Notes under the pieces: generated by a model
Told to the model about the DNA's origin: nothing
What the model saw: only the letters and a program-made list of their open reading frames with translations
Databases searched by the model: none
Shown: piece after piece, positions 393 to 33,854 of the stretch
How positions within the stretch are numbered: position 1 is the first letter of the stretch
Layout of the letters: each line of letters opens with the position of its first letter
From: Thermoanaerobaculia bacterium
Lineage (GTDB): Bacteria > Acidobacteriota > Thermoanaerobaculia > Multivoradales > UBA5704
Length of the DNA stretch: 64,000 nt
Reading direction: 5' to 3'
Assembly (NCBI GenBank): GCA_035536455.1
Contig: DATLOC010000010.1
Location: forward strand, 65,544-129,543
Position numbers and translations under genes: made by a program

Positions 393-1595
393 ATGAGTTC
401 TTCACCAAGCTGGACGCCAGAAGATAGCCTTTCCGGACTCGAAGCGGCTCTACGCCCCAAGCCGCCCCGCCACCAACTTGTATTTTACGGTAGCGATCCG
501 TGGAAGCTGACGGAGACACTCTTCCTGCACTTCGAGAACACCAAGAACCTTCAGTCAATCCTCGCCACCAACGTAGGCTTCACGCCAAACGAGACACAGG
601 CGACTCACATCTCTGTTTGTCTGAGGCAAGGGAGAGAACTCTTTCGCCTTGCGCGAGAGAGTGAGCTTCTAGCTCGGCCACTACTGATCTACTATGGTAT
701 GCACAGCTTCGCGAAAGCCGTGGCTCTCTCCTTTGGCAATCCGAAGACCCATGAAGACTTTCCGGAGGCTCACGGCCTCAAAGACACGCTTCAGATTCAT
801 GCATCCGAACTGGATAGATCTACAGTCAAGATTCTCAATGATGGCGTCTTCCAGCGTTTTGTGTCTGCTCTGCGAGAGACTACCGGCTTCCAATTCCCCG
901 CACCAGTTGCTTCCTTTACATGGGCGCAGGTTCCCTCCACAGAGCCCAGCCGTTTGGCGAACCTCGAGATCTCTCTCAAGGACCTCTTCGCCCGCGTTCC
1001 TGGCCTTGGAGATTTCCTCGGGTTGACGCTCGGGGGCGAGCAAATGATCGCCCGGGCCGAGAGTCGCTTCGACCGCCTAACATCCGCCCCCGCCAAGTTC
1101 CATTTGTTGCTCTACGTTCGAGGCCCTCGAGTGACGGCAGATTGGGCAAGGACACTCCAGCCCGCTCTTCGTCAGTGGGGAGTTCTCCGTGAACAGCCAG
1201 GCGAAGTGATATTTGATAACACACCGCCCGATTGGACATATTCACAAATAGAGGAAGAAACTGCGCGGGTCGTTCGCCCAGTTGGTTCTCTTCTCTTCCC
1301 TATGGAAATGACACTTGGTGATGAAGCCTTGATAGTCGGTACTTTGGGCGGTCATACGTTGCCGAGCATGGCGATCGAGTATTTAGCAGCCTTTGCTTTG
1401 GGCAGCATTGCCCGATACCGGCCGGATCTTTGGGCCGACTTCGTCTCCCTCCGCTCAGCGAAGGGGCACTCCGGCTACCGTGCGCTTGTCGAACGGTTCC
1501 TCGACCTAATAATCGAGCGCTTCCCACTCAAAGTGCTCACAACGATGACAGAAACCCGTATCGTCCTCAGAAATCCGGGCGTGATCTCGGGATGA
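393..1595 (+). CDS. Hypothetical protein, 400 aa, in a lower-GC segment. Possibly horizontally acquired.
   Basis: Long ORF with protein-like composition. GC is visibly lower than flanking DNA. No recognisable family motif (contains LLIYYGMHSFAKAVAL). No obvious SD sequence. Confidence 0.5.
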   Translation: MSSSPSWTPEDSLSGLEAALRPKPPRHQLVFYGSDPWKLTETLFLHFENTKNLQSILATNVGFTPNETQATHISVCLRQGRELFRLARESELLARPLLIYYGMHSFAKAVALSFGNPKTHEDFPEAHGLKDTLQIHASELDRSTVKILNDGVFQRFVSALRETTGFQFPAPVASFTWAQVPSTEPSRLANLEISLKDLFARVPGLGDFLGLTLGGEQMIARAESRFDRLTSAPAKFHLLLYVRGPRVTADWARTLQPALRQWGVLREQPGEVIFDNTPPDWTYSQIEEETARVVRPVGSLLFPMEMTLGDEALIVGTLGGHTLPSMAIEYLAAFALGSIARYRPDLWADFVSLRSAKGHSGYRALVERFLDLIIERFPLKVLTTMTETRIVLRNPGVISG

Positions 1596-1895: not shown

Positions 1896-2180
1896 CTAGG
1901 CCTCGTCCAGGCCCAGATCGCGACGGAGGTCGGCCACCGTCTGCGGCTCTCCCTCCCCCGCTCGCGCCCTGGCCAGCGCCGCGAGCAGGCGCTCCGCGTT
2001 CTTGGGCGAGCGTAGGAGGTGCGCCGTTTCGGTCAGGCTCGCCAGCTCGTCGGCGGAGATGAGGGCGACGGCGTCGGCGCCCCGCCGCCGGATGATCACG
2101 GTCTCGCGGTCCTGTGTCACGCGGTCGAGCAGCCGAGCGAGGGCGGCGCGGGCCTGGGTGTAGGTCGTCTCGATCGCCAT
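1896..2180 (-). CDS. yefM: YefM/Phd-family antitoxin
   Basis: [65 protein letters not shown] is the Phd/YefM fold. A GGAGGAGCC SD sits upstream of the ATG at 2180. The ORF-track extension to 2459 is upstream read-through. Confidence 0.85.
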
Positions 2181-2274
2181 CTCGGCTCCTCCTTGTACAG
2201 GAAGACTGTACGGAACGGGGAAGCGACGGTCAAGGAGTGCTGTCCTCGCCACTCCGTTTTCCGTCATTCTCTGC

Positions 2275-4146
2275 ATGATGACCACCGCCCCCTCCCCCAC
2301 TCTCGCCGACGCCCGGGCCACGCTCAGGCGGGTCTTCGGCTTCGACGCCTTCCGCGGCGCGCAGGAGGCGGTGGTGGGTTCCCTCCTCGCCAGCGAGGAC
2401 GCGTTCGTCGTCTGGCCGACGGGGGGCGGGAAGTCGCTCTGCTTCCAACTCCCCGCCATCCTGCGGCCGGGGACCGGGGTGGTCGTCTCGCCGCTCGTGG
2501 CGCTGATGCAGGACCAGGTGGCGGCGCTGCGGCAGCTCGGCGTGGCGGCGGCGGCGGCGCACTCGGGGCTGCCGCCGGGCGAGCTCGCCGCCGTCGAGCG
2601 CCGCTTCGCCGCGGGCGAGCTCGACCTCCTCTACGTCGCCCCCGAGCGACTTCTCACCGACCGCTTCCTCACCCTCCTCGACCAGACGCCGCTCGCCCTC
2701 CTCGCGATCGACGAGGCGCACTGCGTCTCGCAGTGGGGGCACGACTTCCGGCCGGAGTACCTGGGTCTCGGCGTCCTCGGCCGCCGCTTCCCGGGCGTGC
2801 CGCGGCTCGCCCTCACCGCCACCGCCGACCCGACGACGCGCCGCGAGATCGTCGAGCGGCTGGACCTGCCGCGGGCGCGGCTCTTCCTCGCCAGCTTCGA
2901 CCGCCCCAACGTGCGCTACCGCGTCGTCGACAAGCGCGAGGATCCGGCGCGCCAGCTCCTCACCTTCCTGCGCGAGGAGCACGCCGGCGACTGCGGCATC
3001 GTCTACCGCCTGTCGCGCGCCAAGGTCGAGGCGACGGCGGCGTTCCTCGCCGAGCAGGGCGTGGCCGCGCTTCCCTACCACGCCGGCCTGAGTCCCGCCG
3101 AGCGCGCGGCGACGCTCGGCCGCTTCCGCGCCGGCGAGGGGCTGGTGGTCGTCGCCACCGTCGCCTTCGGCCTCGGCATCGACCGCCCCGACGTCCGCTT
3201 CGTCGCCCACCTCGACGTGCCGAGCAGCCTCGAGGCCTACCACCAGGAGACCGGGCGCGCCGGCCGCGACGGCGAGCCGGCCGACGCCTGGATGACCTAC
3301 GGCCTCGGCGACGTGCTGGCGATGCGCCGGCGGATCGACGCCGGCGAGGCCGAGGAGACGCGCAAGCAGGTCGAGCGGCGCAAGCTCGACTCGCTCCTCG
3401 GCTACTGCGAGACGACGGAGTGCCGGCGGCGCGCTCTCCTGCGCTACTTCGGCGAGGAGCCGCCCGGACCGTGCGGCAACTGCGACACCTGCCTCGAGCC
3501 GATCGCCACCTGGGACGCCACGGTGCCGGCGCAGAAGGCGCTCTCGGCGGTCTACCGCACCGGCCAGCGCTTCGGGATGATGCACGTCATCGACGTGCTG
3601 CGCGGCGAGCGCACCGAGAAGGTGCTGCGCCACGGCCACGAGCGCCTCCCCACCTTCGGCGTCGGCGCCGACCTCGAGCCCAAGGCCTGGCGGACGCTGC
3701 TGCGCCAGCTCCTGGTGCGCGGCCTGCTCGCGGCCGAGGTCGAGGGCCTGCAGACCCTGCGTCTCGAGCCCGACGCCTGGCCGGTGCTGCGCGGCGAGAA
3801 GAGCCTCCTGCTGCGCGAGGAGCGGAAGCCGTCGGCGCGCAGCCGCCGGCGCGGCGAGCGGAGCGCCGCCGGCGCGGCGCCGGGCCTTTTCGCGGCCGCG
3901 CCCCTCGATCCCGCCGCCGAGCGGCTGTTCGAGGCGCTGCGCGCCCTGCGCCGCGACCTCGCGCTGGCGCAGGGCGTGCCTGCCTACGTCGTCTTCCACG
4001 ACGCCACCCTCCGCGCTGTCGCCGCGCGCGCGCCGCGGACCCTCGCCGAGCTCGGCCAGGTCTCCGGCATCGGCGAGGCGAAGCTCGCCCGCTACGGCGA
4101 GGCGGTGCTTTCGAAAGTGCGCGAGGTGCTCGTCGGGCCCGATTGA
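2275..4146 (+). CDS. recQ: ATP-dependent DNA helicase RecQ
   Basis: [14 protein letters not shown]..., Walker [18 protein letters not shown] box [18 protein letters not shown], helicase C region, zinc-binding CxxC, and a C-terminal HRDC-like region. 623 aa. Confidence 0.95.
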
Positions 4147-4205: not shown

Positions 4206-7205
4206 ATGCCGGAGCCCCAGCCGCCGCTCGCCGGCGCCACTCTCGCCCACTATCGCCTCGCGAACCGGCTCGGCGCCGGCGGCATGGGCGAGGTCTATGC
4301 CGCCGAGGACACCAAGCTCGGGCGCCGCATCGCACTGAAGATCCTGCAGCCCGACTTCGCCGGCGACCCGCTGCGGCTCGAGCGGTTCCGCCGCGAGGCC
4401 CGGGCCGTGGCCGCCCTCAACCACCCCAACATCATTACGATCCATTCGGTCGAGGAGGACCGCGGGATCCACTTTCTCACCATGGAGTTGGTGGAAGGGG
4501 AGACGCTGCGGCAGCGGCTGCGCCGGGGCGGTCTGTCGCTCGCCGAGCTCTTGGAGCTGGCGGTGCCGCTCGCCGACGCGGTCGGGGCGGCGCACGAGCG
4601 CGGCATCACCCATCGCGATCTCAAGCCGGAGAACGTGATGGTGACCCGGGACGGCCGGGTCAAGGTGCTCGACTTCGGCCTCGCCCAGCTGCGCGAGCGC
4701 GCGGTCGCGGTCGACAGCCAGGCCGTGACCTACCTCACCGAGGCGGGAACGGTGATGGGGACCGCCGCCTACCTCTCACCCGAGCAGGCGATGGGGCGGG
4801 AGGTGGACGCCCGCTCCGACATCTTTTCGCTCGGCATCGTGCTCTTCGAGATGGCGTCCGGCAGGCACCCGTTCGCCGGGGCTTCCGCGGCGGAGATCAT
4901 CTCGGCGATCCTGCGGGACAAGCCGGCGCCGGTGACCGAGCGCAACGCCGCGCTCCCCGACCACCTCGGCCGGATCGTCGGCCGCTGCCTCGAGAAGAAT
5001 CCCGAGCACCGCTATCAGAGCGCCAAGGATCTTCGCAACGATCTGCGGGATCTGGGACGCGAGCTGGACGCGACGGAGCGCCTCGGCAACCGAGCTGCGG
5101 CGGCCGCGCCGGTGCGACGCCCCCGCTGGCTGCTGCCCGTCCTGCCGGCGCTTTTGGCCCTTGTGCTAGGCACGGGTTGGTGGCTGTTGAGCCATCGTCC
5201 GGAGAGCGCCCGCACGCCGCCCGCCGGGCCGGCGGACGCGCCGGACCGCGCCGCCATCGCGGTGCTCCACTTCCAGAACCTCACCGGGGACCCGAAGCTC
5301 GACTGGCTCCGCACGGGTCTCACCGAGATGCTGGTCACCGACCTCTCGCAATCCCCCGGCCTGGAGGTCCTGAGCACCGGGCGCCTCTATCAGATCCTCA
5401 AGAAGCACGACGCCCTCGATCGGGCGCCGCTGTCCTTCGAGGCCATGCGGGCGGTGGCCGAGGAGGCCGCCGTGCAGGCGATGGTGAGGGGCAGCTTCGC
5501 CCGGGTCGGCGAGCGCTATCGCCTTGCGGTCACGGTCGAGGAGCCGACGGACGGCAGGATCGTCGCCTCCGAGCGCGTCGAAGGACGCGGCCCTGAGACC
5601 CTTTTCACCCTGGTGGACCAGCTCTCGGCGGCGATCCGACGCACCTTCGAGATCCGCGCCCGGCCCGAGCTGCCGGAGACGGTGGCGGCGGTGACCACCT
5701 CCTCGGTCGAGGCTTGGCGCAACTACTCGGAGGCGAACCGGCTGGCCTTCGAGTCGAAACCGAGGGAGGCGATCGGCCTGCTCGAGCAGGCAGTCGCGAT
5801 CGACCCGACCTTCGCTCTCGCCTACGCCAGCCTGGGGCGCCTGTACGAGAACCTCGGTAACACTCCTACCGCCCGGCACCACACGCGGCGCGCCATCGCA
5901 CATGCCGAGCGGCTCCCGCTCGATCAGCGCAGCGAGATCGAGGGCTTCTACTACGCCGGCCGCTGGGCGACCAAGGACCGCGCCATCGCCGCCTTCCGGC
6001 AGGCCCTGAGGCTCTACCCCAAGCGCGAGTCGCTGCGCAACAACCTGGCCAATCTCTACGCCGAGCGGGAGCTGTACCAGCGCGCCCTCGACGAGTATCG
6101 GCAGCTCATCGAGCAGCGCACGAGCTACCCCGGCACCTACACCGCCGCGGCCAACGCCTATGCCGCGCTCGACCGGTTCGATGAAGGGTACCGGCTGCTG
6201 TCGGGGTTCGCCGGCCGCGCCCCCGACAACTGGTTCGTCCAGCTCGGGCTGGGCTGGCACCTGACCGAGTGGGGCAAGCTCGACCGGGCGGCGGCGGCAT
6301 TCGATCGGGCCGCGGAGCTGCGACCGGGCGAGCTGTTCGTCGCCTACGGCCGCTGGCGGCTGGCCGTCCTGCGCGAGGACTGGCCGGCGGCGGCCCGCCA
6401 CGCGTCGGTGATGGCAGCCGCCGACGACCCGTTCGGCCGCTGGCGGGGAGCGGCGTCGGAGGCGCGCAATCTCTTGTACCAGGGTCGATCCGACGCGGCA
6501 CTCGCGCGGCTGGACGGCGTCGTCGCAGCCTACGGGAAACCGGACGCCTTGAGCGCGCTCGGGCGCTGCTGGAAGGCGGAGCTGCTGCTGCAGAGGGGCG
6601 AGCCCGAGCAGGCGCTGGCGGAGGCGGAGCTGGCTCGGCGGGAGGGCCGCGACGAATGGCCGGAGCTGCGGGGGATCTTCTTCGCCGCCCAGGCCCAGCA
6701 GGCCCTCAGCCGGCCGGTCGAGGCGCGCAGCCTGCAGCAGCTGCTGGCGGAGCGGAACGCCGCCAACCCGAACCCTGTCGAGGAGCGCCAGCTCCACCTC
6801 CTCGCCGGCCTCCTCGCGCTGGCGCGCGGCGAGGCGGCGACCGCCGTTGAGGCCCTCAACCGGGCCGCTGCCCTCCTGCCGCCCAAAGGCGTCGAGGTGC
6901 ACTGGCACGTCTACCCCGACCACGTCCCGATCTGGACCGCGCTGGGCGAGGCCGAGCGCGCCGCCGGGCGGCCCGAGCGGGCGCTCGCGTGGTTCCAGCG
7001 GGCGGCCGCCAGCGGGTCGGAGCACCTCGAGCAGCCCGTGCCTTACGTGCGCAGCTTCTACTTCCTCGGCCGCATCCGCGAGCAACGGGGCGAGACCGAG
7101 GAGGCTCGGCGCAGCTTCGCGCGCTTCCGCGCCTTCTGGGCTGCCGGCGACCTCGACCGCGACCGGATGGCAGCGCTGCCGGCGGCTGTGCGCCCCTCTC
7201 CCTAG
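4206..7205 (+). CDS. Ser/Thr protein kinase with one TM segment and a C-terminal TPR/tetratricopeptide domain (receptor-like STK)
   Basis: Hanks kinase motifs ([29 protein letters not shown]). Hydrophobic segment [21 protein letters not shown], then about 650 aa of TPR-like helical repeats. The start is taken at the ATG at 4206, inside the long artefactual ORF 2019..7205. Confidence 0.85.
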
Positions 7206-23182: not shown

Positions 23183-23965
23183 CTAACCAGCGGGAGGGGG
23201 CGCTTCCTTCCGCCGCAGCTCGGCGATGAGGCGGGGGGAGGTGGCGCGGTGCCAGGGGGTGCGGTCGTAGTCGCCCCAGAGGTTGGTGACGGCGAGGCCG
23301 GCGGTGCGGGCGCGGCGCTGCAGCTCGGCGAGCGACCAGAGGCGGCCGCGGAAGCTGGCCGCGACGGCAGGCGCGCCGGGAGGCTCGTAGGTGAAGCGCA
23401 CGGCGCAGACGCGGCTCCCCGGCTCGCAGCGCAAGACCTCCTCCACCGCCAGGCCGCCAGCAACGCGGTGCGCGATGACGAGCCCGGCGCGCGACGCGGC
23501 CACCCGCCGCCGGCGCGGCGAGAGCCAGGCGGCGTCGAGGACGAAGCGCCCGTCCGGCGCCAAGTGGCGGGCCGCGGCGCGCAGCGCCCGGTCCCGGTCG
23601 GCGTCGTTCAGGAGATGGACAAAGGGGTCGTCCACGGCGGCGACGAGGTCGAAGACGGCGCGCAGCCGAAGATCACGGGCGTCGGCCGCGAGAAGCCGTA
23701 CGTTGGCCAGTCCCGCCAGCCCTCGCCGCGCCACGGCGAGCAGCTCGGGCGCGACGTCGAAGGCCGTGACCGCGCCGGCCGTTTGTGCGAGGAAGGCGGT
23801 CGCCCGCCCCGTGCCGCAGCCGATCTCCAGCACCCGGCACCCCGGCGGCTCCCCCGCCGCCGCGCTCCAGAACGGCCCGTCGCCGCGCCCGGCGAGCTCA
23901 CGCTCGTAGAATGGCAGGATGCGCCGGTAGTAGGCACGGACCTCCTCGGCGCTCTCTCGTCGCAC
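23183..23965 (-). CDS. Class I SAM-dependent methyltransferase
   Basis: VLEIGCGTGRATAFL motif I. GTG start. Confidence 0.75.
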   Translation of the reverse strand: MRRESAEEVRAYYRRILPFYERELAGRGDGPFWSAAAGEPPGCRVLEIGCGTGRATAFLAQTAGAVTAFDVAPELLAVARRGLAGLANVRLLAADARDLRLRAVFDLVAAVDDPFVHLLNDADRDRALRAAARHLAPDGRFVLDAAWLSPRRRRVAASRAGLVIAHRVAGGLAVEEVLRCEPGSRVCAVRFTYEPPGAPAVAASFRGRLWSLAELQRRARTAGLAVTNLWGDYDRTPWHRATSPRLIAELRRKEAPPPAG

Positions 23966-24699: not shown

Positions 24700-25950
24700 G
24701 GTGGACACATGGGTTCGCCGACTGCCGGCTCGGTGGTGTGCCCTACAAGCGGGCCGCTTACCTCTGGATTACGAGGCGCAATGATGGGATGGACTCCTCC
24801 TGCGACTCAGACGGCATCGACGTGCCAGAGTCGCCGGCGGCAACCGAAAGGAGGAGTCCGCCATGCAGTCTACGACCATCGCTGTCGACCTCGCAAAGAA
24901 CGTTTTTCCAGGTGGCGGTCTCCCGCCACCCCGGCAAGGTCGCCGAGACGCACCGACTCACGCGCGGCGAGCTCGTACGCTTCTTCGCCGAGCGCCAGCC
25001 GGCGGTTGTCCTGCTCGAGGCCTGTGGCACCGCCCATTTCTGGGCGCGACAGCTCCAGCAGCTCGGCCACCGCGTCCTGCTCCTGCCGCCTGCCCATGTC
25101 CGCCGCTACGTAACCCGGAACAAGACCGACCAAGCCGACGCGAAGGCGCTGCTCGAAGCCCACCGCAACGAGGAGATCCGCCCCGTTCCGGTCAAGTCGG
25201 TCGCCCAGCAGACCCTCGCGGCTCTCCATCGCCTGCGTTCGGCCTGGATCGCCGATCGCACCGCGCGCATCAACCTCGTCCGCGGCGTGCTCCGCGAGCT
25301 GGGGCACCCGATCCCCGTCGGCGCTCGCCACGTCGTCCCACAGGCCTGGGCTCTTCTCGAATCTGCCGCAGCGAGCTGCCGGATCCGCTCCGGCTCGCCC
25401 TGGCGGAGGCCTGCCTCGAGATCCGCGACTTTGAAGCCCGTCTCCAAGCGATCGAAAAACAGCTCGAGGCTCTCGCCAAGCAGACGCCCGTCGTCGAGCG
25501 CTTGCGCTCCATCCCGGGCGTCGGGCTTCTGACCGCCACCGCCTTGGTCGCCTTCGTCGGAGAGGTCGGCCGCTTCACCACCTGCCGCCACTTCGCCAGC
25601 TATCTCGGCCTCACTCCCCGCGAGCGCTCCAGCGGGCAGACGCGACAACTCGGCCGCATCAGCAAACGCGGCGACGCCTACCTGCGCACTCTCCTCATCC
25701 ACGGCGCCCGCGCCGTCCTCTGGGCCGCCAAACGTCTGCAGAAACCTGATCGCCTGCGCGCCTGGGCACTCGCGGTCGAACGGCTCCGCGGCCACAACCG
25801 AGCCGCCGTGGCGCTGGCCAACAAGATGGCCCGCATCGCCTGGGCCGTCTGGAGGAGCGACACGGCCTACCAAGCGCGGCCGCTGGCCGCGTGAAATCGG
25901 CCGGGTAGGAGAGAGAAACGCTTCCTCCCGCAAGCTGCTGTGAGATCGAA
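24700..25950 (+). mobile_element. IS110-family insertion sequence remnant. Boundaries approximate.
   Basis: Contains the IS110/DEDD transposase pseudogene. IS110 elements lack clear terminal inverted repeats, so the ends cannot be fixed from sequence alone. Confidence 0.5.
24863..25894 (+). pseudogene. IS110-family transposase disrupted by two frameshifts
   Basis: N-terminus MQSTTIAVDLAKNVF then +1 frame QVAVSRHPGKVAETHRLTRGELVRFFAERQPAVVLLEACGTAHFW (DEDD N-domain). Shift 1 is in a T5 run at about 24897. Shift 2 is near 25360-25380. The C-terminal domain ...ERLRSIPGVGLLTATALVAFVGEVGRFTTCRHFASYLGLTPRERSSGQTRQLGRISKRGDAYLRTLLIHGA is the typical IS110 C-terminus. Confidence 0.8.
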
Positions 25951-26170: not shown

Positions 26171-27109
26171 TTAGGCGACGGGCCCTCGGAAGGTCCATAG
26201 GCCTGACTCAAGAAATGCCCTTATGCCGTCAGCGCTCACAATAGCAATGCGTCGCAGAGCCTCCGCGTAAAACGCATCCGTTAGTTCGGAGCGGACTGAG
26301 GCGTGCAGGATTGAATGGGTAATTCCTGGTGATTGGGGATAGTCGAACCAGAGCCATTCCGACTTGTCGAGCTTGACATTCTCCGCAGTCAAACGGCCTG
26401 TCGAGATTTCAGCCGTTCCTAGGTCAACGGAGGATGACCAGAGAGAAGCCGTTGTGAACACAGCGGGGACGAAAGCAGCCGCCTTTCCCCTTGGAAGCAG
26501 GTCCTCGCGATCGCGGAGAAACTCCATTAGGCCATTGAGGCCGCGGCACACCTGAGTCGCGGCGTCCTCGATCTCGCCACGACCAGATCCACCGGTGTCA
26601 CCCAGGTCGCCTGTGCGTACCTCCAAGCCAACCTGATAGGCGTTCTGGGTTGGAAGGAGCCCTTGTCTGGTGGCTAAGACGTGACCCTCGGAAGTCCGCC
26701 GCACGACTGAAGCCGAGGACGTGCCGCTGTAGTAGTCTTTCTGGGGCCAATCGGCCTGCGCGAAGCACCAGTTGGCGACCGCTGGATTGGCCCGCTTACA
26801 TTCACAAACGAGGAAGATGTTCGGCAAGTTGTTGTGCAGAACGAAGTCGATGCGGGTGTCACGGCCCTTTGCTTCAACGCCGAACTCAGCGACGACGGGA
26901 TACCACGGAGAGCCTTGCTTGCGGAGTTCCTGCACGTGCCGCAGGACGGCATATTGGAAGCCATAACCATGACGGTCGAGAGCCTTTCTGAACCCTGCTT
27001 CGACTAGCGCCCCCTCGTCCACAGGTGATCCCCCCTGCAGCCTAAAGCGTATGAGCTGAGCAACGGCCCCCGCGCGAATGCGGGAGTGACGACCGCTGCA
27101 ACGCTGCAC
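26171..27109 (-). CDS. PD-(D/E)xK-type nuclease-like protein (restriction-endonuclease fold), hypothetical, in a low-GC cassette
   Basis: Candidate catalytic triad ...VAEFGVEAKGRDTRIDFVLHNNLPNIFLVCECKRANP (E...D...ExK). Lower GC and atypical codon usage. GTG start. 312 aa. Confidence 0.5.
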   Translation of the reverse strand: MQRCSGRHSRIRAGAVAQLIRFRLQGGSPVDEGALVEAGFRKALDRHGYGFQYAVLRHVQELRKQGSPWYPVVAEFGVEAKGRDTRIDFVLHNNLPNIFLVCECKRANPAVANWCFAQADWPQKDYYSGTSSASVVRRTSEGHVLATRQGLLPTQNAYQVGLEVRTGDLGDTGGSGRGEIEDAATQVCRGLNGLMEFLRDREDLLPRGKAAAFVPAVFTTASLWSSSVDLGTAEISTGRLTAENVKLDKSEWLWFDYPQSPGITHSILHASVRSELTDAFYAEALRRIAIVSADGIRAFLESGLWTFRGPVA

Positions 27110-27141
27110 TAGCTCATCTCAGTGGCCCAGCGATATGGAGT

Positions 27142-27621
27142 TCAACGGCGAGCCGAGCGAGACCTCTGCAACGATGCGCTCGCCGGCAGCTGCCCCTGCG
27201 CTTGAGCAAGCGCTACCCATTCGGCAACGACGAGTGCCTGGCCGAGATCGCGGGTCCTTGTGTGAGCCCGGATGAATTCTCCCTCCTGCACGTGTCCGGC
27301 CTTGAGGGATCCGAGGATGGTACTGATGGCGGCAATCAGGGTAGCGTGAGCTGATAGTTGGGGGTCGAGAAGGAGCTCCAATTCGTACCGTAGCTGGTCG
27401 ATGTGAAGGTACTCCACGTCGTCGCGATCCTCGAAGCCCGCGGTGAAGTAGTGCAATGTCTTTCCCAGGAACTCGGCTAGTTTCTGCCGGACCTCTGCTG
27501 CCCAAGCGGTGCGCCGATCGCTTTCGAGCTTGAGGCAAGTGGTCCGCCAGGTGACGAACGGCCCCACGAAGACGGCGAGCAGAGCGACGGTCAATGAGAG
27601 GACTGTAATGAGGTCTTTCAC
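27142..27621 (-). CDS. Membrane-anchored hypothetical protein (N-terminal TM helix), co-oriented 32 bp upstream of the PD-(D/E)xK gene
   Basis: VKDLITVLSLTVALLAVFVGPFVTW TM helix, then a soluble helical domain. The overlapping alternative ORF is Arg-rich junk. GTG start. Confidence 0.5.
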   Translation of the reverse strand: MKDLITVLSLTVALLAVFVGPFVTWRTTCLKLESDRRTAWAAEVRQKLAEFLGKTLHYFTAGFEDRDDVEYLHIDQLRYELELLLDPQLSAHATLIAAISTILGSLKAGHVQEGEFIRAHTRTRDLGQALVVAEWVALAQAQGQLPASASLQRSRSARR

Positions 27622-27795
27622 GTACGATACCTTGAACTTGTAGGATCTCCTGCCCGAAGCATAGAGAGGACGTTACCACTGCCGCCTAAGGGCAAGCCTA
27701 CGAGGGTCGAGGTGCGGGCGGGGCGGCTGGTCGTCCGGACTGTCTAGAAAAAGAGGACGGGGGGCGTCGCCGCCCCCCGTGGTGCGCTTGTCGGC

Positions 27796-28179
27796 TTACT
27801 CGGTGGTCTCCGCCGTCCGTGCCGGGGTCGGTGCCGGAGCCGGGGTCTCGGGCTTCTTCGTGCGGCGGACGCCGCGCGGCCGGAGGCCGAACTCGTGGAG
27901 CACCTTGTTCTTGGTGCCGAACTGCCCGCGCAGGGCCGCGTCGGCCTGGCTACGCAGCTCGACGCCGCGAGCCTCGGCTCGCCGGCGCTTCTCGTTGGTC
28001 TCCCGCAGGCGCGCGGTGTAGATCTCCTGCTGGTTCTCGAGGCCGCGGGTCTCGGCGAGCCAGGCTTCGAGGTCGGTCTGCAGGGGCTCGAGCAGGGGGA
28101 TCTCGGGCAGGCGCGCCTTCAGGTTGGTGCTCAGGACGTCCATCGCGGCGATGAGCTCGATCAGGTTGCGGTCCGGCAT
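27796..28179 (-). CDS. Small basic coiled-coil protein with a Lys/Arg/Pro-rich C-terminal tail, hypothetical. Possible DNA-binding protein.
   Basis: ATG at 28179 with AAGGAGAG SD. MPDRNLIELIAAMDVL...ARLRETNEKRRRAEARGVELR... ends ...RRTKKPETPAPAPTPARTAETTE. Divergent from the repeat array. Confidence 0.55.
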   Translation of the reverse strand: MPDRNLIELIAAMDVLSTNLKARLPEIPLLEPLQTDLEAWLAETRGLENQQEIYTARLRETNEKRRRAEARGVELRSQADAALRGQFGTKNKVLHEFGLRPRGVRRTKKPETPAPAPTPARTAETTE

Positions 28180-28261
28180 GGGGCTCTCCTTCATTCCAGT
28201 CGACTGGAGAAGCGCCGGGCGGAGGATTCCGCCGGCGGGGGTGAGACGGAGGGGGCGGCGG

Positions 28262-28560
28262 GGGGAAGCTTCGCTTCCCGGAGGGGAAGCTTCCCCACCC
28301 GAAAGGGAGGCTTCACTTTTCAAAAGGGGAGCTTCGCCATCCAAAGGGGAAGCTTGACCTTTGAGGAAGCTTCGCCATCGGAAAGCGAAGCTCCGCTCTT
28401 CAAGAGGGAAGCTTCCCTACCCGAAAGGGAAGCTTCGCCTTTCAAAGGTGAAGCTTCGCTCTCGGAAGGGAAGGCTTCGCTTTTCAAAAGGGAAGCTTCG
28501 CCATCCAAAGGGGAAGCTTCGCTTTTCAAAAGGGAGGCTTCTCCTGAGGCGGGGAGGGAA
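28262..28560. repeat. Tandem direct-repeat array: about 14 copies of a 19-22 bp unit (consensus about GGGAAGCTTCGCYWTYCAAAAG), each with the 8-bp palindrome GAAGCTTC (8 perfect, 6 degenerate)
   Basis: Read directly from the sequence. Units are head-to-tail with no spacers. Unit length varies, so there is no conserved reading frame. Lies in a roughly 500 bp divergent intergenic region. Confidence 0.9.
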
Positions 28561-28571
28561 GCCCGGTTCCG

Positions 28572-28600
28572 TGTTGTCAGAGCACGCATAGCGGGTATCT
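28572..28600 (+). promoter_or_regulatory. Putative sigma70-like promoter for the XRE regulator (TTGTCA-16 nt-TATCTT)
   Basis: Hexamers with 16-nt spacing about 85 nt upstream of the ATG at 28683. Weak evidence. Confidence 0.25.
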
Positions 28601-28682
28601 TACCTGCCTATCGTGGCCTGTCAACCCACTCAGGCGGGCAGAGCGGGAATAGCTACCCGGACCCGTGGTGTACACTCCCAGC

Positions 28683-29096
28683 ATGGACCCGAGCGGGGCG
28701 GCGCAGCCCGAAGGCCAGCAGCTCGCCCAGGCGCTCCGGCGGAAGATCCGCGAGGCGGGGTTGAGCTACGGCGAGGTCGAGCGCCGGCTGGGCATGGGGA
28801 AAGACACCCTGCGCCACATCCTGAGCGGCAGGGTCGAGCTCAAGGTCAAACACCTCTACGGAGTCCTGGGCGCCCTGGGGATCGAGCCCGCCCAGTTCTT
28901 CGCCGAGCACTACGGCCTGCTGACGCCGCTCCAGGCCGCCAATCAGAACCACCACCCGCACGTGCCGAGCCTGTCCCTCATCCAGAGCGCGGCGATCTGG
29001 TTCATCGCCCGGAGGCTCAAGGAGAAGGGAATCCTGGCCGAGGACGAGATGGAGGCGTTCGTCACGGAGCACGAGCGGAAGGCGTCGGCGCCCTAG
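28683..29096 (+). CDS. XRE-family helix-turn-helix transcriptional regulator
   Basis: LRRKIREAGLSYGEVERRLGMGKDTLRHILSGRVELKVKHLYGVLGALGI is an HTH_3 motif. An alternative GTG start at 28665 is possible. Confidence 0.75.
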   Translation: MDPSGAAQPEGQQLAQALRRKIREAGLSYGEVERRLGMGKDTLRHILSGRVELKVKHLYGVLGALGIEPAQFFAEHYGLLTPLQAANQNHHPHVPSLSLIQSAAIWFIARRLKEKGILAEDEMEAFVTEHERKASAP

Positions 29097-29145
29097 CTTC
29101 CGGGGCGGGTTGGCCACCTCCGCTCGGAATGCTATGGTGGCATAT

Positions 29146-29871
29146 ATGAAGACCTCGATCGTCCGTTTCTTCGTCCTGGTGTTCCTCTTCCTGGCGGCGT
29201 CCACGGGCGCCGCGGCGACCGAAATCACCTTCTCCCCTGCCCCGCCGGTGACCGGGCAGTCGTTCACCATCACCTTCCACGGCGTCGCCATGGCCTGCGA
29301 GGACGTCGGGACGCTGGCGGTTCAGAGCATCGCCTTCGACACGATCAGCCTCGTGGTGACCGATCCCGGCTGCCCCGTCATCCCGATCGGTCCGGTGGAG
29401 TACACCGCCAGCGTCAACGTGGGGCCGCTCGCCGCCGGCACCTACGCGGTGCAGGTGCGCGCGGAAGGTACGTCCGTGCTGCTCGACTTCCAGCTCTTCG
29501 AGGTGAAGCCGGCCCCGGCCTGCGACGCCACCGACACCGCCCTCTGCCTCGACGGCCGGTTCGAGGTGACCGCCGAGTGGACCGACTTCGACGGCAACGA
29601 CGGCGTCGCGCACACGATGCCGGACGACTTCGACGGGCTGGGCGACTGGGGGACCCTCTGGTTCTTCGGGCAGGACAACCCCGAAATGCTGGTCAAGATC
29701 CTGGACGCCTGCGCGGTGAACGGCCACTACTGGGTCTTCCTCTCCCCGGCCTCGACGGTGCGCTACGAGATCACCGTGCGCGACGTCCGCACCGGGGCGG
29801 TGAAGACCTACTCGAAGCCCCTCCACGTGGTGCCGGAGCTCTTCGCCGACACCAGCGCCTTCGACTGCTAG
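29146..29871 (+). CDS. Secreted hypothetical protein
   Basis: Signal peptide MKTSIVRFFVLVFLFLAASTGAAA. No recognisable family. 241 aa. Confidence 0.55.
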   Translation: MKTSIVRFFVLVFLFLAASTGAAATEITFSPAPPVTGQSFTITFHGVAMACEDVGTLAVQSIAFDTISLVVTDPGCPVIPIGPVEYTASVNVGPLAAGTYAVQVRAEGTSVLLDFQLFEVKPAPACDATDTALCLDGRFEVTAEWTDFDGNDGVAHTMPDDFDGLGDWGTLWFFGQDNPEMLVKILDACAVNGHYWVFLSPASTVRYEITVRDVRTGAVKTYSKPLHVVPELFADTSAFDC

Positions 29872-30797
29872 CCGGCGTCGTGGTGCCGGACCACCTGCCG
29901 CGCCGCGGCCGGCGGGACGACGAGGACGCTGCAGCGCGCCTGGCGGACGACGGTGGCGGCGACGCTGCCGACCAGGAAGCGGTCGAAGCCGCTGCGGCCG
30001 TGGGTGCCGAGGACGGCGAGGTCCACGCCGCGGCCGAGGGCGCGCAGGATCTCGTTGCGCGGGTCGCCGGAGCGGGGGATGGCGCGGAGCTCGAGCGGCG
30101 TCCCCGCCTGCTCGCGCTCGACGAACGCCGCGAGCTCCGCGGCGGAGCGCCGCTCGGCCTCCTCCTCGGTGAGCTGGGGCTCCGCCTGGCGCTCGGCCAC
30201 GAACTTCATGAACGTGTGGACTTGGAGGACGTCCACCCGCACCGGCGCGCCGCCGGCCACCTGCGCCAGGAGCGCCAGGCCGGTGTGGAAGGCTTCGGTC
30301 GAGAGCGGCGAGAGGTCGACCGCCGCCACGACCTTGGCCGGCGGCACGCGCAGGGCGGGGCGCACGACCAGGACCGGGCAGGGGGCGGTGCGCACCACCC
30401 GGTCGGCGGTCGAGCCGAGCCGGTCGCGGAAGGCCTTGCCGGGAACCTTGGCGCCTACCACGATCAGGTCGGCGTCGCCGTCGCGCGCCGCCTGGACGAG
30501 CCCCCGCGCCGGCGGTCCTTCCAGCACCTCGTAGCGGACCGCGACCGCTGGCGCGCCGGCCTCCTCGGCCTGGCGGCGGAGGGCCTCGCGATGGTGCGCC
30601 AGGGCCTCCTCGCGCAGGTCGGCGGGGTCCACGGGCTCCTCGCCGAGAAAGTGCGGCTGCGGCCCCAGGGCGTGGACCAGGTCCACCTCGGCGCCGGCGG
30701 CGCGGGCCAGGGCGAGGACGACGCGGACGACCTCGTCGCTCCCCTCCTCCAGCGAGCTGCCGACGACGAGGCGCTTCAGAGGGGCCTCGGCGCTCAT
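29868..30797 (-). CDS. Universal stress protein, tandem UspA domains
   Basis: Two USP-type alpha/beta domains (KRLVVGSSLEEGSDEVVRVVLALARAAGAEVDLVHAL... and ...AVLGTHGRSGFDRFLVGSVAATVVRQARCSVLVVP). ATGA start/stop overlap with the upstream gene. Confidence 0.8.
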   Translation of the reverse strand: MSAEAPLKRLVVGSSLEEGSDEVVRVVLALARAAGAEVDLVHALGPQPHFLGEEPVDPADLREEALAHHREALRRQAEEAGAPAVAVRYEVLEGPPARGLVQAARDGDADLIVVGAKVPGKAFRDRLGSTADRVVRTAPCPVLVVRPALRVPPAKVVAAVDLSPLSTEAFHTGLALLAQVAGGAPVRVDVLQVHTFMKFVAERQAEPQLTEEEAERRSAAELAAFVEREQAGTPLELRAIPRSGDPRNEILRALGRGVDLAVLGTHGRSGFDRFLVGSVAATVVRQARCSVLVVPPAAARQVVRHHDAG

Positions 30798-31273
30798 CCG
30801 GGCCGCCCCGCCGGCGGCTTGCCGGCGCCCACGGCTTCCAGCGCCTCCGCCAGGGCGAGCGCCTGCTCGCGCGAGATCGGCCCCTGGCTCCCCACCGTGT
30901 CCATCAGCCGGCGCTGCAGCGTCTGCATCGCCACCGGGTCCATCCGCCCCTCCTCCACCGCCTCGCTGGCGGCGGCGAAGGCGGCGTGCAGGCGGGCGCG
31001 GTCCGCGTCGGTGACGTCGGGGGCGTAGCGGGCCTCGATCTGCGTCTCGGTGTACCCGAGGAGCCAGCCGAAGAGCTTCGGCCCCTGGGTGACCATGACG
31101 ATGAGGCCGATCCCGAGGACGATCAGGAGCCCCAGGCAGCCGACCAGCGCCACCTTGGCGCAGCCCGAGCCCGCCGGGTTGCGCGGCGCGCCGGGCTCGA
31201 AGGGTGCGGGCGGGAGCTGCGAGTCGTCGGGGGCGGGGCCGTCCGGCTCGGTCATCGCCGCTCTTTGTACCAC
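30794..31273 (-). CDS. Membrane-anchored hypothetical protein (single TM, periplasmic helical domain)
   Basis: TM helix VALVGCLGLLIVLGIGLIVMV. A GGGAG SD lies before the GTG at 31273. Translationally coupled to the USP gene. Confidence 0.6.
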   Translation of the reverse strand: MVQRAAMTEPDGPAPDDSQLPPAPFEPGAPRNPAGSGCAKVALVGCLGLLIVLGIGLIVMVTQGPKLFGWLLGYTETQIEARYAPDVTDADRARLHAAFAAASEAVEEGRMDPVAMQTLQRRLMDTVGSQGPISREQALALAEALEAVGAGKPPAGRPG

Positions 31274-31292
31274 GACTCCCTATAATCGCCGC

Positions 31293-33854
31293 GTGGACTA
31301 CGACCCGCCCCGCCGCACCCACGGTCCGCCCCCCGCCCCGCCGCGCCGCCGCCGACCGCTGCCGCCGGGCCGCGCCCTGCGCTGGGCCTGGCCGCTCCTC
31401 GGCGCGCTCCTCCTCGGCGCCGCCAGCGGTGTCATCTTCGCCGCGGCGATCCACGTGCCGCGCGTCGACTCGGTCGTCGACTTCACGCCCGGCCTCGTCA
31501 CCCAGCTCCTCGACCGTAACGGCAAGGTCTTCACCACCTTCGCGCGCGAGCGGCGGGTGATGCTGGAGGAGGGGCAGATCCCCAAGGTGCTCGAGAACGC
31601 CGTCCTGGCCTCGGAGGACAGCAACTTCTTCCGCCACGGCGGCGTCGACGCCTTCGGCATCGGCCGCGCCGCCCTCGCCGACCTGCGCGCCGGCGAGGTG
31701 GTCGAGGGGGCCTCGACGATCACCATGCAGCTCGCGCGCAGCCTCTTCCTGTCGCGCGAGCAGGTCTGGCGGCGGAAGATCGAGGAGGCCTTCCTGGCGG
31801 TCGAGCTGGAGAAGACCTTCAGCAAGCAGCAGATCCTGACCATGTACCTCAACCTGATGAACTTCGGCCACGGCAACTACGGCGTCGAGGCCGCCTCGCG
31901 CTACTACTTCGGCAAGCCCGCGGCGAAGCTGACGTTGGCCGAGGCGGCGACGCTGGTCGGCATCCTGCCGGCGCCCAGCCGCTACAGCCCGTACCGCCGG
32001 CCGGAGGTGGTGCTCAGCCAGCGCCAGCGCGTGCTGCGGCGGATGCTCGAGGAGGGGATGATCGACCGCCCCGCCCACGACCGCGCCGCGGCGCAGCCGC
32101 TCCTCGTCTCGCGCCAGCAGCCGCAGCAGGCCTTCGCGCCGTACTTCGCCGAGGACGTGCGCAAGCACCTGGAGGCGACCTACGGCGCCGACGCGCTCTA
32201 CGAGGGCGGGTTGCAGGTGCAGACGACGCTCGACCCGGCGATCCAGCGCTCGGCCGAGAAGGCGGTGCGCGAGGGGCTGGCGCGGCTCGACCACCGCCGC
32301 GGCTGGCGCGGCCCGGTCGCCGAGCTGGAGGGCGACCCGGCGCAGCAGACGCTCCCCTCCTGGAGCGGCGCCGAGCCGGCCGTCGGCCGCTGGCACCAGG
32401 GGATCGTGCTGGAGTCCGGGCCGAAGACCGCGACGGTGCGGATCGACAAGGGGACCTACACCCTCGAGCCCGCGGGCTTCCGCTGGACCGGCCGCACGCG
32501 GCCGGACTCGCTGCTCGATCCGGGGGACGTCGCCTGGTTCCGGCTCGACGTGCCGAAGGAGAAGGGCAAGCCGAAGGAGGGCGCCGCGCCGCGCCTCTAC
32601 CTCGAGCAGGAGCCGCGCATGGAGGCGGCGGCGGTGGTCATCGAGCATGCCCGCGGCGCCGTCCGCGCCATGGTCGGCGGCTGGGACTTTGAGCGCAACA
32701 AGTTCAACCGCGTCTCCCAGGCCAAGCGGCAGACGGGGTCGGCCTTCAAGGTCTTCGTCTACGGCGCCGCGCTGGAGAACGGCTGGACGCCGTCCGACAC
32801 CATCCTCGACGCCCCCACCGTCTTCATCGGCGCCGACGGCCGCCTCTCCTACCGGCCGCAGAACTACTACCGGAAGTACTACGGCATCGTCACCCTGCGG
32901 CGGGCGCTGGCGCTGTCGCTCAACATCTCGTCGGTCAAGCTCCTCGACCTCGTCGGGGTGCGGCGGGTGATCGCCTTCGCCCGCCGTTGCGGCGTCGACC
33001 AGCCGCTGCCGCCCTACCCCAGCCTCGCGCTCGGCACCGCGGACCTGACGCCGCTGCGCTTCGCCGCCGCCTACGCCGCGATCGCCAATCAGGGGACCTG
33101 GATCGAGCCCTACCTCGTCCAGCGCATCGCCAGCCCCGAGGGGCAGGTGCTCGAGCAGCACGTCCCCAACACCCGCACGGCGACCGACCCGGCGGTGGCC
33201 TACGTCCTCACCCACATGATGGAAGGGGTGATCGACCACGGCACCGCGACGCCGGTCAAGGACCTGCCGATCGACATCGCCGGCAAGACCGGCACGACCG
33301 ACGACTTCTCCGACGCCTGGTTCGTCGGCTTCACGCCGCGCTACACCATCCTCACCTGGGTCGGCTACGACGTGAAGAAGTCGCTCGGCGGCGGCATGAG
33401 CGGGACAGTGGCGGCGCTGCCGATGTGGCGCGGCATCGTCGAGGACGGGCTCGGGACGGGGTGGCTGACGAAGGGCGAGGAGTTCGCGGTCCCCGGCGGC
33501 GTCACCACCCGCGACGTCGAGTACTACACCGGCCTCCTGCCCGGCGCCGGCAGCCAACGCAGGCAGAGAGAAGCCTTCGTCGCCGGCACCGAGCCCTCCG
33601 GCCAGCACGGCCCGGAGTGGAACTCGATCCTGAACCTCCCCTGGTACCAGCAGAAGTCGTTCTACATCCCGAAGCAGGGGGAGGAGATGCGCCCCGCGCC
33701 GGAGGGCCCGGAGGGCGCGGCCCCACCGGGCGCCACCGAAGGCGCGGCACCGGAGGCGGGGGCGGTCGAGGAGGGCGAAGCGGTACCCCCGGTCGGCGGC
33801 GAGGAGCCGCCCGCGGACCAGCCCGCGCCTACCGCGGAGCCGCCGCCGCCGTAG
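31293..33854 (+). CDS. mrcA: Class A penicillin-binding protein (PBP1A; transglycosylase + transpeptidase)
   Basis: GT51 motifs (EDSNFFRHGGVD, TITMQLAR), transpeptidase SxxK/SxN/KTG (GKTGTT) regions, and a low-complexity Pro/Glu/Ala-rich C-terminal tail. The start is uncertain: the in-frame GTG at 31293 lies just after a TATAAT at 31281, and the upstream part of the 31050 ORF is antisense junk. Confidence 0.85.
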   Translation: MDYDPPRRTHGPPPAPPRRRRPLPPGRALRWAWPLLGALLLGAASGVIFAAAIHVPRVDSVVDFTPGLVTQLLDRNGKVFTTFARERRVMLEEGQIPKVLENAVLASEDSNFFRHGGVDAFGIGRAALADLRAGEVVEGASTITMQLARSLFLSREQVWRRKIEEAFLAVELEKTFSKQQILTMYLNLMNFGHGNYGVEAASRYYFGKPAAKLTLAEAATLVGILPAPSRYSPYRRPEVVLSQRQRVLRRMLEEGMIDRPAHDRAAAQPLLVSRQQPQQAFAPYFAEDVRKHLEATYGADALYEGGLQVQTTLDPAIQRSAEKAVREGLARLDHRRGWRGPVAELEGDPAQQTLPSWSGAEPAVGRWHQGIVLESGPKTATVRIDKGTYTLEPAGFRWTGRTRPDSLLDPGDVAWFRLDVPKEKGKPKEGAAPRLYLEQEPRMEAAAVVIEHARGAVRAMVGGWDFERNKFNRVSQAKRQTGSAFKVFVYGAALENGWTPSDTILDAPTVFIGADGRLSYRPQNYYRKYYGIVTLRRALALSLNISSVKLLDLVGVRRVIAFARRCGVDQPLPPYPSLALGTADLTPLRFAAAYAAIANQGTWIEPYLVQRIASPEGQVLEQHVPNTRTATDPAVAYVLTHMMEGVIDHGTATPVKDLPIDIAGKTGTTDDFSDAWFVGFTPRYTILTWVGYDVKKSLGGGMSGTVAALPMWRGIVEDGLGTGWLTKGEEFAVPGGVTTRDVEYYTGLLPGAGSQRRQREAFVAGTEPSGQHGPEWNSILNLPWYQQKSFYIPKQGEEMRPAPEGPEGAAPPGATEGAAPEAGAVEEGEAVPPVGGEEPPADQPAPTAEPPPP

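Follow-up and report, generated by a model that had tools for sequence, protein, structure and literature searches.

Several of the bacterial defence systems closest to the locus described here rely on nucleases of the restriction-endonuclease fold. Shedu consists of a single gene, which encodes a PD-(D/E)xK nuclease, has no methylase partner and has spread horizontally. In E. coli K-12, mrr and mcrBC flank hsdRMS. The Pfam family HSDR_N_2 (PF13588) covers the nuclease domain of Type I restriction subunits (R subunits) and stand-alone relatives. We analyzed two adjacent genes of low GC (guanine plus cytosine) content in a 64-kb stretch of a Thermoanaerobaculia metagenome-assembled genome (MAG); "the window" means this whole stretch. 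Both products, a nuclease-like protein (VNJ70_03270) and a membrane protein (VNJ70_03275), are annotated as hypothetical. An earlier note on this DNA had taken them for a cassette made of a membrane sensor and a nuclease effector. The comparison of loci indicates otherwise: the two proteins are not a conserved pair, and the two-gene cassette is not a system. The explanation that we somewhat favor is that the region at 26.1-27.7 kb is a small acquired islet, lying by a decayed IS110 element, which holds two independent single-gene accessory units. The features concerned are the following (aa, amino acids; TM, transmembrane; pLDDT, predicted local distance difference test).

26171-27022, minus strand: gene of the 283-aa PD-(D/E)xK-like nuclease, VNJ70_03270 (database protein, homologue alignment, AlphaFold pLDDT 92.4)
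26795-26887, minus strand: predicted catalytic codons of the nuclease, E46 (26885-26887), D59 (26846-26848), E74 (26801-26803) and K76 (26795-26797), predicted from invariance
26633-26752, minus strand: variable beta-hairpin insertion of the nuclease, residues 91-130, between the ExK strand and a conserved helix (alignment and model)
27142-27621, minus strand: gene of the 159-aa membrane-anchored helical-bundle protein, VNJ70_03275 (AlphaFold pLDDT 79.5, all-helical)
27547-27609, minus strand: codons of its N-terminal TM helix, residues 5-25 (hydropathy; kept in homologues)

The association of the two genes was examined in 48 genome loci and in the Pfam-annotated contexts of the homologues P0003, P0009, P0109, P0002, P0005, P0057 and P0100. 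All-against-all clustering of open reading frames (ORFs) covered 53 loci, of which 50 contain a nuclease-family gene. The nuclease family itself is the sole recurrent cluster and was recovered from 48 distinct loci; apart from it, nine loci are reached only by a cluster of antisense ORFs within the family gene, and genuine neighbor clusters span at most 5 loci, mostly from closely related genomes. At none of the 50 family loci scanned does the neighborhood of the nuclease, taken to 6-8 kb, contain a membrane-protein homologue, and none was called beside two further nuclease relatives. A small ORF with an N-terminal TM helix represents 1 of the 84 immediate neighbors of family genes. Among 145 nearest neighbors the commonest Pfam family is amidohydrolase, with 4 occurrences, which probably correspond to the ORF of about 430 aa downstream of the gene in three Pyrinomonadaceae loci and in one unclassified MAG. 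Unrelated neighbors surround the closest of the nuclease relatives examined, which have identities of 62%, 56% and 55% (P0004, with 54%, was left out). The pair is known in the source organism alone, since the one other locus that carries it (L054) is the same sequence in another assembly. Co-occurrence of the two genes as neighbors was thus not observed across genomes. The earlier note had itself named non-conservation as neighbors among the findings that would count against its sensor and effector cassette, and this is what the 0/50 loci show.

The search was also made from the side of the membrane protein. By tblastn the nuclease family was not found in two loci carrying a membrane-protein homologue (L001 and L002), nor by blastn in L001, and the gene tables of L060-L065 hold no unannotated ORF of 270-300 aa save one in L063, which was not compared. 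Candidates for a hidden relation were also tried and rejected. Flank-against-flank blastn revealed no conserved DNA element beside the nuclease gene, similarity being confined to closely related genomes. In L055 and in L056 the nuclease gene is followed downstream by a 239-aa ORF, and these two ORFs are mutually unrelated. The HSDR_N_2-like neighbor of the membrane-protein homologue in L002, considered for distant membership in the nuclease family, obtained an hhalign probability of 5%.

The membrane-protein family has a distribution of its own. Two homologues were recovered by single-sequence search and a profile search brought the family to 28 proteins in total, among which a Vibrio protein is 36% identical to that of the window. 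In a Stellaceae genome (L064) the homologue is solitary in housekeeping surroundings, between dapA and a gene for a DegP-like protease. In L002 it lies 153 bp downstream of an HSDR_N_2-like gene, and in L001 1.1 kb downstream of an Mrr gene. In Vibrio lentus one and the same homologue occurs in four arrays of same-strand ORFs. In the array of L060 a repeat of about 125 nt, starting with ATAACAAA and ending with GGCGTTA, follows every ORF, the homologue included: repeats at 5859-5986 and 6467-6564 flank the homologue ORF at 6001-6474. In L063 (4794-6474) the array opens with the homologue, next to a divergent tyrosine-recombinase (Phage_integrase) gene, past which, about 1.6 kb upstream of the homologue, lies a NERD-domain gene. 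The V. lentus homologue is thus a repeat-bounded ORF with a neighboring Phage_integrase gene, a layout that we take to be that of attC sites and an integron integrase, which would make the homologue a chromosomal-integron cassette, a self-contained single-gene unit. The unit that follows it varies by strain and is a Shedu-type SduA_C gene, an 83-aa ORF or a 299-aa ORF. A scan of the window for repeats found no integron-type repeats around its own copy of the gene. The membrane-protein family therefore moves on its own, without the nuclease family.

Two side observations concern these loci. In L060 (5859-7811) the next repeat-bounded unit holds an SduA_C nuclease, and a DUF4365 gene occurs further along the array. 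In L001 the ORF ends at 2724-2921, 3609-3917, 5034-5519 and 6045-6878 share the peptide repeats NTR[LF]NRTRCARRLT and LTPGS[ST]GLA[AV]LA, which suggests a dispersed intergenic repeat element.

The single N-terminal TM helix that the earlier note had read in the upstream protein is conserved in the homologues: the Kyte-Doolittle mean over 19 residues amounts to 2.4 at residues 5-23, and the protein has no other hydrophobic helix. A cluster of R and K follows this helix, so that by the positive-inside rule the helical bundle is probably on the cytoplasmic side. Foldseek searches with the model returned generic four-helix-bundle matches, all with E>=0.13; among them are sensor domains of chemoreceptors and histidine kinases, as well as bundles designed de novo. 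No match for the protein was obtained in scans of PADLOC, NCBIfam and PHROGs.

The nuclease family very probably belongs to the PD-(D/E)xK superfamily, a view based on its motif and on weak signals that agree with one another. In 36 diverse homologues, whose identity to the window protein goes down to 36%, residues E46, D59, E74 and K76 are invariant, so that the E...D...ExK arrangement noticed earlier, in a peptide which is indeed present, is a property of the whole family. In the AlphaFold model (pLDDT 92.4, predicted template-modeling score 0.91) these residues stand on or beside the predicted beta strands 40-44, 54-64 and 69-76. The family thus shows, on the second and third core strands, the acidic residue followed by D and by (D/E)xK that is expected in the PD-(D/E)xK superfamily. 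The alignment of the 36 members contains 24 invariant and 26 near-invariant positions; conserved positions include E46, D59, E74-C-K76-R-A-N-P, E152, Q157, T190-T-A192, S231-P-G...H236 and R257. The model begins with a helix (20-35), continues with the motif strands (40-76) and the inserted hairpin, and then shows a helix (150-170), a strand (181-190) and a further conserved subdomain. E152, Q157 and R160 are carried by the conserved helix, and TTA, SPGxxH and R257 by a conserved C-terminal extension. The hairpin, with strands 101-109 and 115-124, is variable: over residues 91-130 the mean frequency of the top residue is 0.26-0.39, versus 0.8-0.9 in the flanking blocks. E134-V-R136 was considered as an alternative ExK motif and rejected, the third position being variable (R/K/N/Q/H).

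The weak signals come from profiles and structures. Among the Foldseek matches listed, PD-(D/E)xK nucleases are frequent (AF1548, the R2 endonuclease domain, Bax1, DrdV, MGME1, Cas4, AddB and viral PD-(D/E)xK proteins). Pfam profiles matched by the 36 members are HSDR_N_2 (26/36, best E 4e-4), PDDEXK_11 (5/36) and YhcG_C (3/36). Two results count against the assignment: no Foldseek match of the model to PDB or BFVD was significant (best E 0.024), and all the Pfam matches fall under the gathering thresholds. The PD-(D/E)xK-type motif read in the earlier note is supported by its invariance, by the recurrent HSDR_N_2 signal and by the composition of the Foldseek lists; the fold itself, predicted from these signals, finds no significant structural match.

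The nuclease family is large. A word-indexed search gave 238 homologues. An exhaustive profile search, counted in representatives of clusters at 50% identity, reached 1,963 with a cut-off of E<=1e-3, and 701 of them also pass E<=1e-30. In the 150 family matches listed of these 1,963, lengths are nearly all 275-320 aa and no fusions occur. There is no Pfam, NCBIfam, PADLOC or PHROG model for the family, and it has no name in any source; a profile search of PDB sequences found no relative, and in the literature nothing was found on the motif ECKRANP, nor on PF13588 coupled with defence. A pattern scan located the family in 48 of 185,579 species genomes. It is spread over at least eight phyla, among Acidobacteriota, Chloroflexota, Planctomycetota, Nitrospirota, Syntrophales, Bacteroidota, Gemmatimonadota and Thermotogae, and the position of the gene differs even inside Pyrinomonadaceae. 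By tblastn the family was not found in GenBank phages or in PLSDB plasmids, and in IMG/VR a single contig out of 2.9 million has a copy (UViG_3300001798_000017; L059, 7980-8834). This copy lies between the endolysin and integrase genes of a Mu-portal-type prophage, beside a DDE transposase gene; the portal and terminase genes are encoded on the other strand. An Anaerolineae MAG (W92_265) contains two paralogues that are 48% identical (L010, 1601-2464, and L051, 184-1059), with the reserve that this MAG may be chimeric.

In the window the two genes stand out by their composition, as the earlier note had observed. The region 26171-27621 has a GC content of 59.9%, compared to a mean of 70.9% (standard deviation 3.8) for same-sized windows across the 64-kb stretch; 1.1% of these have an equally low GC, the others being located at window positions 1 to about 600. 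The GC content at third codon positions (GC3) is 0.65 for the nuclease gene and 0.71 for the membrane-protein gene, versus 0.90-0.98 for uvrB, PBP1A, the helix-turn-helix (HTH) gene and other native genes. This deviant GC and GC3 therefore marks both genes as foreign. Low GC is moreover general in the nuclease family: in 39 of 44 loci the gene has a lower GC content than the DNA on either side (median difference -8.5 points; Wilcoxon p=4e-8), and the low GC in the window is therefore a family property.

As longest ORFs the two genes extend over 26171-27109 and 27142-27621, both on the minus strand, and it is to these coordinates only that the 32-bp gap given in the earlier note corresponds. 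The database protein of 283 aa and the homologue alignment place the start of the nuclease at the GTG at 27022, preceded by GGGGGGA, and not at 27109; the spacer is therefore 119 bp long, while the common orientation holds. The surroundings of the two genes are as follows.

27023-27141, minus strand: spacer of 119 bp between the two genes, with a G-rich Shine-Dalgarno-like run ahead of the GTG
27757-27780, minus strand: terminator-like GC hairpin with a T-run, which ends the native upstream gene (terminator prediction)
24738-25894, plus strand: IS110-family transposase remnant, frameshifted and 5'-truncated, convergent with the nuclease gene (domains split by frame)

Since the hairpin at 27757-27780 ends the native upstream gene, the low-GC genes begin a new transcription unit. 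No terminator was predicted between them in 27023-27141, and given this they may be co-transcribed in this genome. The IS110 remnant, whose adjacency had been rightly noted, constitutes one edge of the acquired islet. It carries DEDD_Tnp_IS110 (profile positions 42-153 only, 1-41 being absent) and Transposase_20 in separate frames, and its GC3 is intermediate (0.82). The flanking toxin-antitoxin loci mentioned by the earlier note were not recovered: there is none in the immediate flanks of the islet, and the nearest confirmed one, YoeB/YefM (1617-2459), is 24 kb off and is probably the locus that was meant. The islet contains no DNA methyltransferase with which a Type II restriction-modification (R-M) system could be formed; the methyltransferase nearby (23183-23965) is a generic class I enzyme (Methyltransf_25/11) with native GC3, as is the GC3 of the HTH gene at 28665-29096.

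The genomic contexts of the nuclease family were then considered. At five loci the family gene is co-oriented with, and within about 130 bp of, genes of R-M-type or modification-based defence.

L012, L026 and L034: type IIG/Eco57I methylase genes near a co-oriented family gene
L014, 143-11212: family gene between a DUF499 (HmaC-like) gene and a 1,405-aa ORF, in an Hma-type locus with DUF1156/DUF499
L057, 8001-13694: type I hsdR-hsdS operon, with the family gene lying 52 bp ahead of hsdR

In L014 and L057 the product of the family gene might serve modification-based systems as an accessory nuclease. Further defence-type neighbors of family genes are MNT-HEPN, BanI R-M, TIR, PIN and Phd. Defence genes are described in one preprint as grouping in islands (bioRxiv 10.1101/2022.05.11.491447), and because of this clustering the placement of the family by R-M-type genes suggests a defence role, which we consider possible, at a little less than even chances.

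Two observations on PBP1A genes may be added. In a Pyrinomonadaceae MAG (L027, 1219-4880) the family gene starts 18 bp past the PBP1A stop, and in the window (26171-33854) a PBP1A gene lies 4 kb from the nuclease, in another arrangement; this proximity in both places is probably a coincidence.

The islet of two independent units has to be weighed against the proposal that an envelope-sensing membrane protein activates the PD-(D/E)xK nuclease, the two forming a dedicated abortive-infection or defence system in obligate partnership. This proposal draws on the arrangement in the window, where two foreign, co-oriented genes of similarly deviant GC3 are separated by a 119-bp spacer in which no terminator is predicted, one being predicted just upstream of the pair, and on the presence of some PD-(D/E)xK-type gene near membrane-protein homologues at four loci (L001, L002, L060 and L063). 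The same facts weigh against independent units: the two genes could have arrived together and act together in this lineage, and the nuclease genes near the homologues could hint at a loose functional link. To the same side of the balance belong, as regards a defence role of the nuclease, the enrichment in defence neighbors, which is qualitative, estimated by eye and without a genome-wide background, and the housekeeping surroundings of the family gene at several loci, namely rpoD (L005), PBP1A (L027), an iron ABC transporter (L056) and L058. Housekeeping contexts, which the earlier note had named as counting against its proposal, are thus present at several loci, and genes of R-M type adjoin the family gene at five. 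An obligate partnership nevertheless appears very improbable to us: the pair is confined to the source organism, none of the 50 family loci has a membrane-protein homologue and 1 of 84 neighbors is analogous to it, the closest nuclease relatives examined have other neighbors, the membrane protein stands alone between the integron-type repeats of Vibrio and is solitary in Stellaceae, and PADLOC, whose use on the region had been advised, yielded no match for either protein.

Three other explanations concern the nuclease by itself. It could be a Type II-like restriction subunit whose methyltransferase is encoded elsewhere in the genome, the hairpin 91-130 setting its specificity; a variable segment inside an otherwise conserved core and the five loci co-oriented within about 130 bp of DNA-methylase-containing systems agree with this. 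Most loci, including the window, nevertheless have no adjacent DNA methyltransferase (N6_Mtase and Eco57I domains occur in 2-3 of the 145 neighbors), the methyltransferase at 23183-23965 is generic and native, and Type II enzymes rarely remain as conserved from phylum to phylum as this family, with 40% identity or more and some 50 positions invariant or nearly so. We hold this explanation for improbable, and to the same degree that of a selfish mobile nuclease, homing-endonuclease-like or transposon-associated, which would cut empty sites or ride insertion sequences without benefit to the host. The solitary, consistently low-GC genes in unrelated intergenic sites, some between housekeeping genes, would fit a selfish element, as would the adjoining IS110 remnant here, the DDE transposase in L059 and, in L003, an IS481-type gene at a distance of 7 kb. 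The neighbors do not, though, include any recurrent transposase family, no terminal DNA is conserved, there is no intron or intein context, and the two copies in one MAG are just 48% identical and thus give no sign of recent multiplication. The very strong sequence conservation, and core genes nearby (dnaG-rpoD in L005, PBP1A in L027, uvrB 3 kb off in the window), could also denote a housekeeping nuclease of DNA repair or recombination, resolvase- or NucS-like, proper to certain soil lineages. This is about as improbable as the obligate partnership, given a family scattered over phyla in 48 of 185,579 species genomes by pattern scan, a position that varies even in Pyrinomonadaceae, a GC content under that of the host in 39 of 44 loci and one copy on a prophage. 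The acquired islet with two single-gene units remains the explanation that we retain.

The nuclease would be a Mg2+-dependent DNA endonuclease and, as a defence protein, would work alone. Because a cognate methyltransferase is nearly always missing, it would have to spare host DNA, either by a Type IV or Mrr-like need for modified phage DNA or by a Shedu-like restraint until foreign DNA ends appear, and the variable hairpin 91-130 may set the choice of substrate. The most far-reaching version, which we consider rather unlikely, is that the 283-aa protein represents a new and widespread single-gene anti-phage nuclease system of about 2,000 sequence clusters, found for the most part in soil and sediment phyla that are poorly cultured, with a core restrained on host DNA and a hairpin that tunes the recognition of foreign DNA, and that the membrane protein is a second, independent single-gene exclusion factor like those between integron-type repeats in Vibrio.

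The lead of a two-gene system in the window can be dropped. What remains is a large mobile nuclease family, found recurrently in R-M-type defence loci and without a model in the libraries searched. Its main hosts are Acidobacteriota, Chloroflexota and Planctomycetota, and few defence systems are known to have been tested in these phyla. Should it act in defence, the known repertoire would gain a single-gene system and perhaps a restriction-type enzyme of a new sort; with another function the family would still be well defined and deserve a curated model. A large unmodeled family of this kind is in any case a fair candidate for a defence screen.

Some other elements of the window were recorded. 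A second low-GC stretch (1-2459, GC 0.59-0.62) encodes a YaaC-like 400-aa protein (393-1595, plus strand) and the YoeB toxin and Phd-YefM antitoxin pair (1617-1889 and 1896-2459, minus strand). At 28263-28541, flanked by a native ORF of 126 aa (27796-28176, minus strand) and by the HTH gene, which is of XRE type, there are about 13.5 tandem copies of the 21-nt unit GGGAAGCTTCGCTTTCCAAAA, with the palindrome GAAGCTTC in every unit and a GC of 0.57-0.59. This array could be a set of binding sites or a coding segment of heptad repeats. An RNA partner for the nuclease was looked for and rejected, the Rfam scan of 23.5-30 kb giving just two sub-threshold matches to microRNA models, both within the array.

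Compared with known systems, the islet resembles several and coincides with none. The likeness to Kiwa and Zorya is superficial and consists in a membrane-protein gene followed by a nuclease-like gene; there is no homology in PADLOC, where neither protein has a match at E<=1 (PADLOC-DB v2), and here the pair is not conserved. The membrane protein differs in setting from its homologue in the Vibrio integron cassettes, which is bounded by repeats, whereas the window copy has no repeats and lies by an IS110 remnant in an Acidobacteriota genome. With Shedu (SduA; PF14082, SduA_C / DUF4263) the nuclease family shares a solitary, methylase-free and mobile gene, and differs in length and architecture; it has no Shedu match in Pfam or PADLOC, and no Shedu structure is among the 50 Foldseek PDB matches listed. 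It resembles the Type IV enzymes of Mrr type as a solitary restriction-fold nuclease without a methylase, found by R-M genes (L057, L012, L026, L034 and L014), and is distinguished from them by the lack of any Mrr_cat or Mrr_N match and of a recognizable domain for binding modified bases. HSDR_N_2 is the sole Pfam family touched by most members, over residues 44-89, and has the same E...D...ExK core on consecutive strands. Unlike this domain in R subunits, the nuclease is a stand-alone protein of 280 aa, with a variable insertion of 40 residues, a conserved C-terminal extension of about 100 residues and no helicase module, and the comparison with an HSDR_N_2-like protein by hhalign is that already given for L002. 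The family is best filed as a new one inside a known kind, that of stand-alone restriction-fold nucleases.

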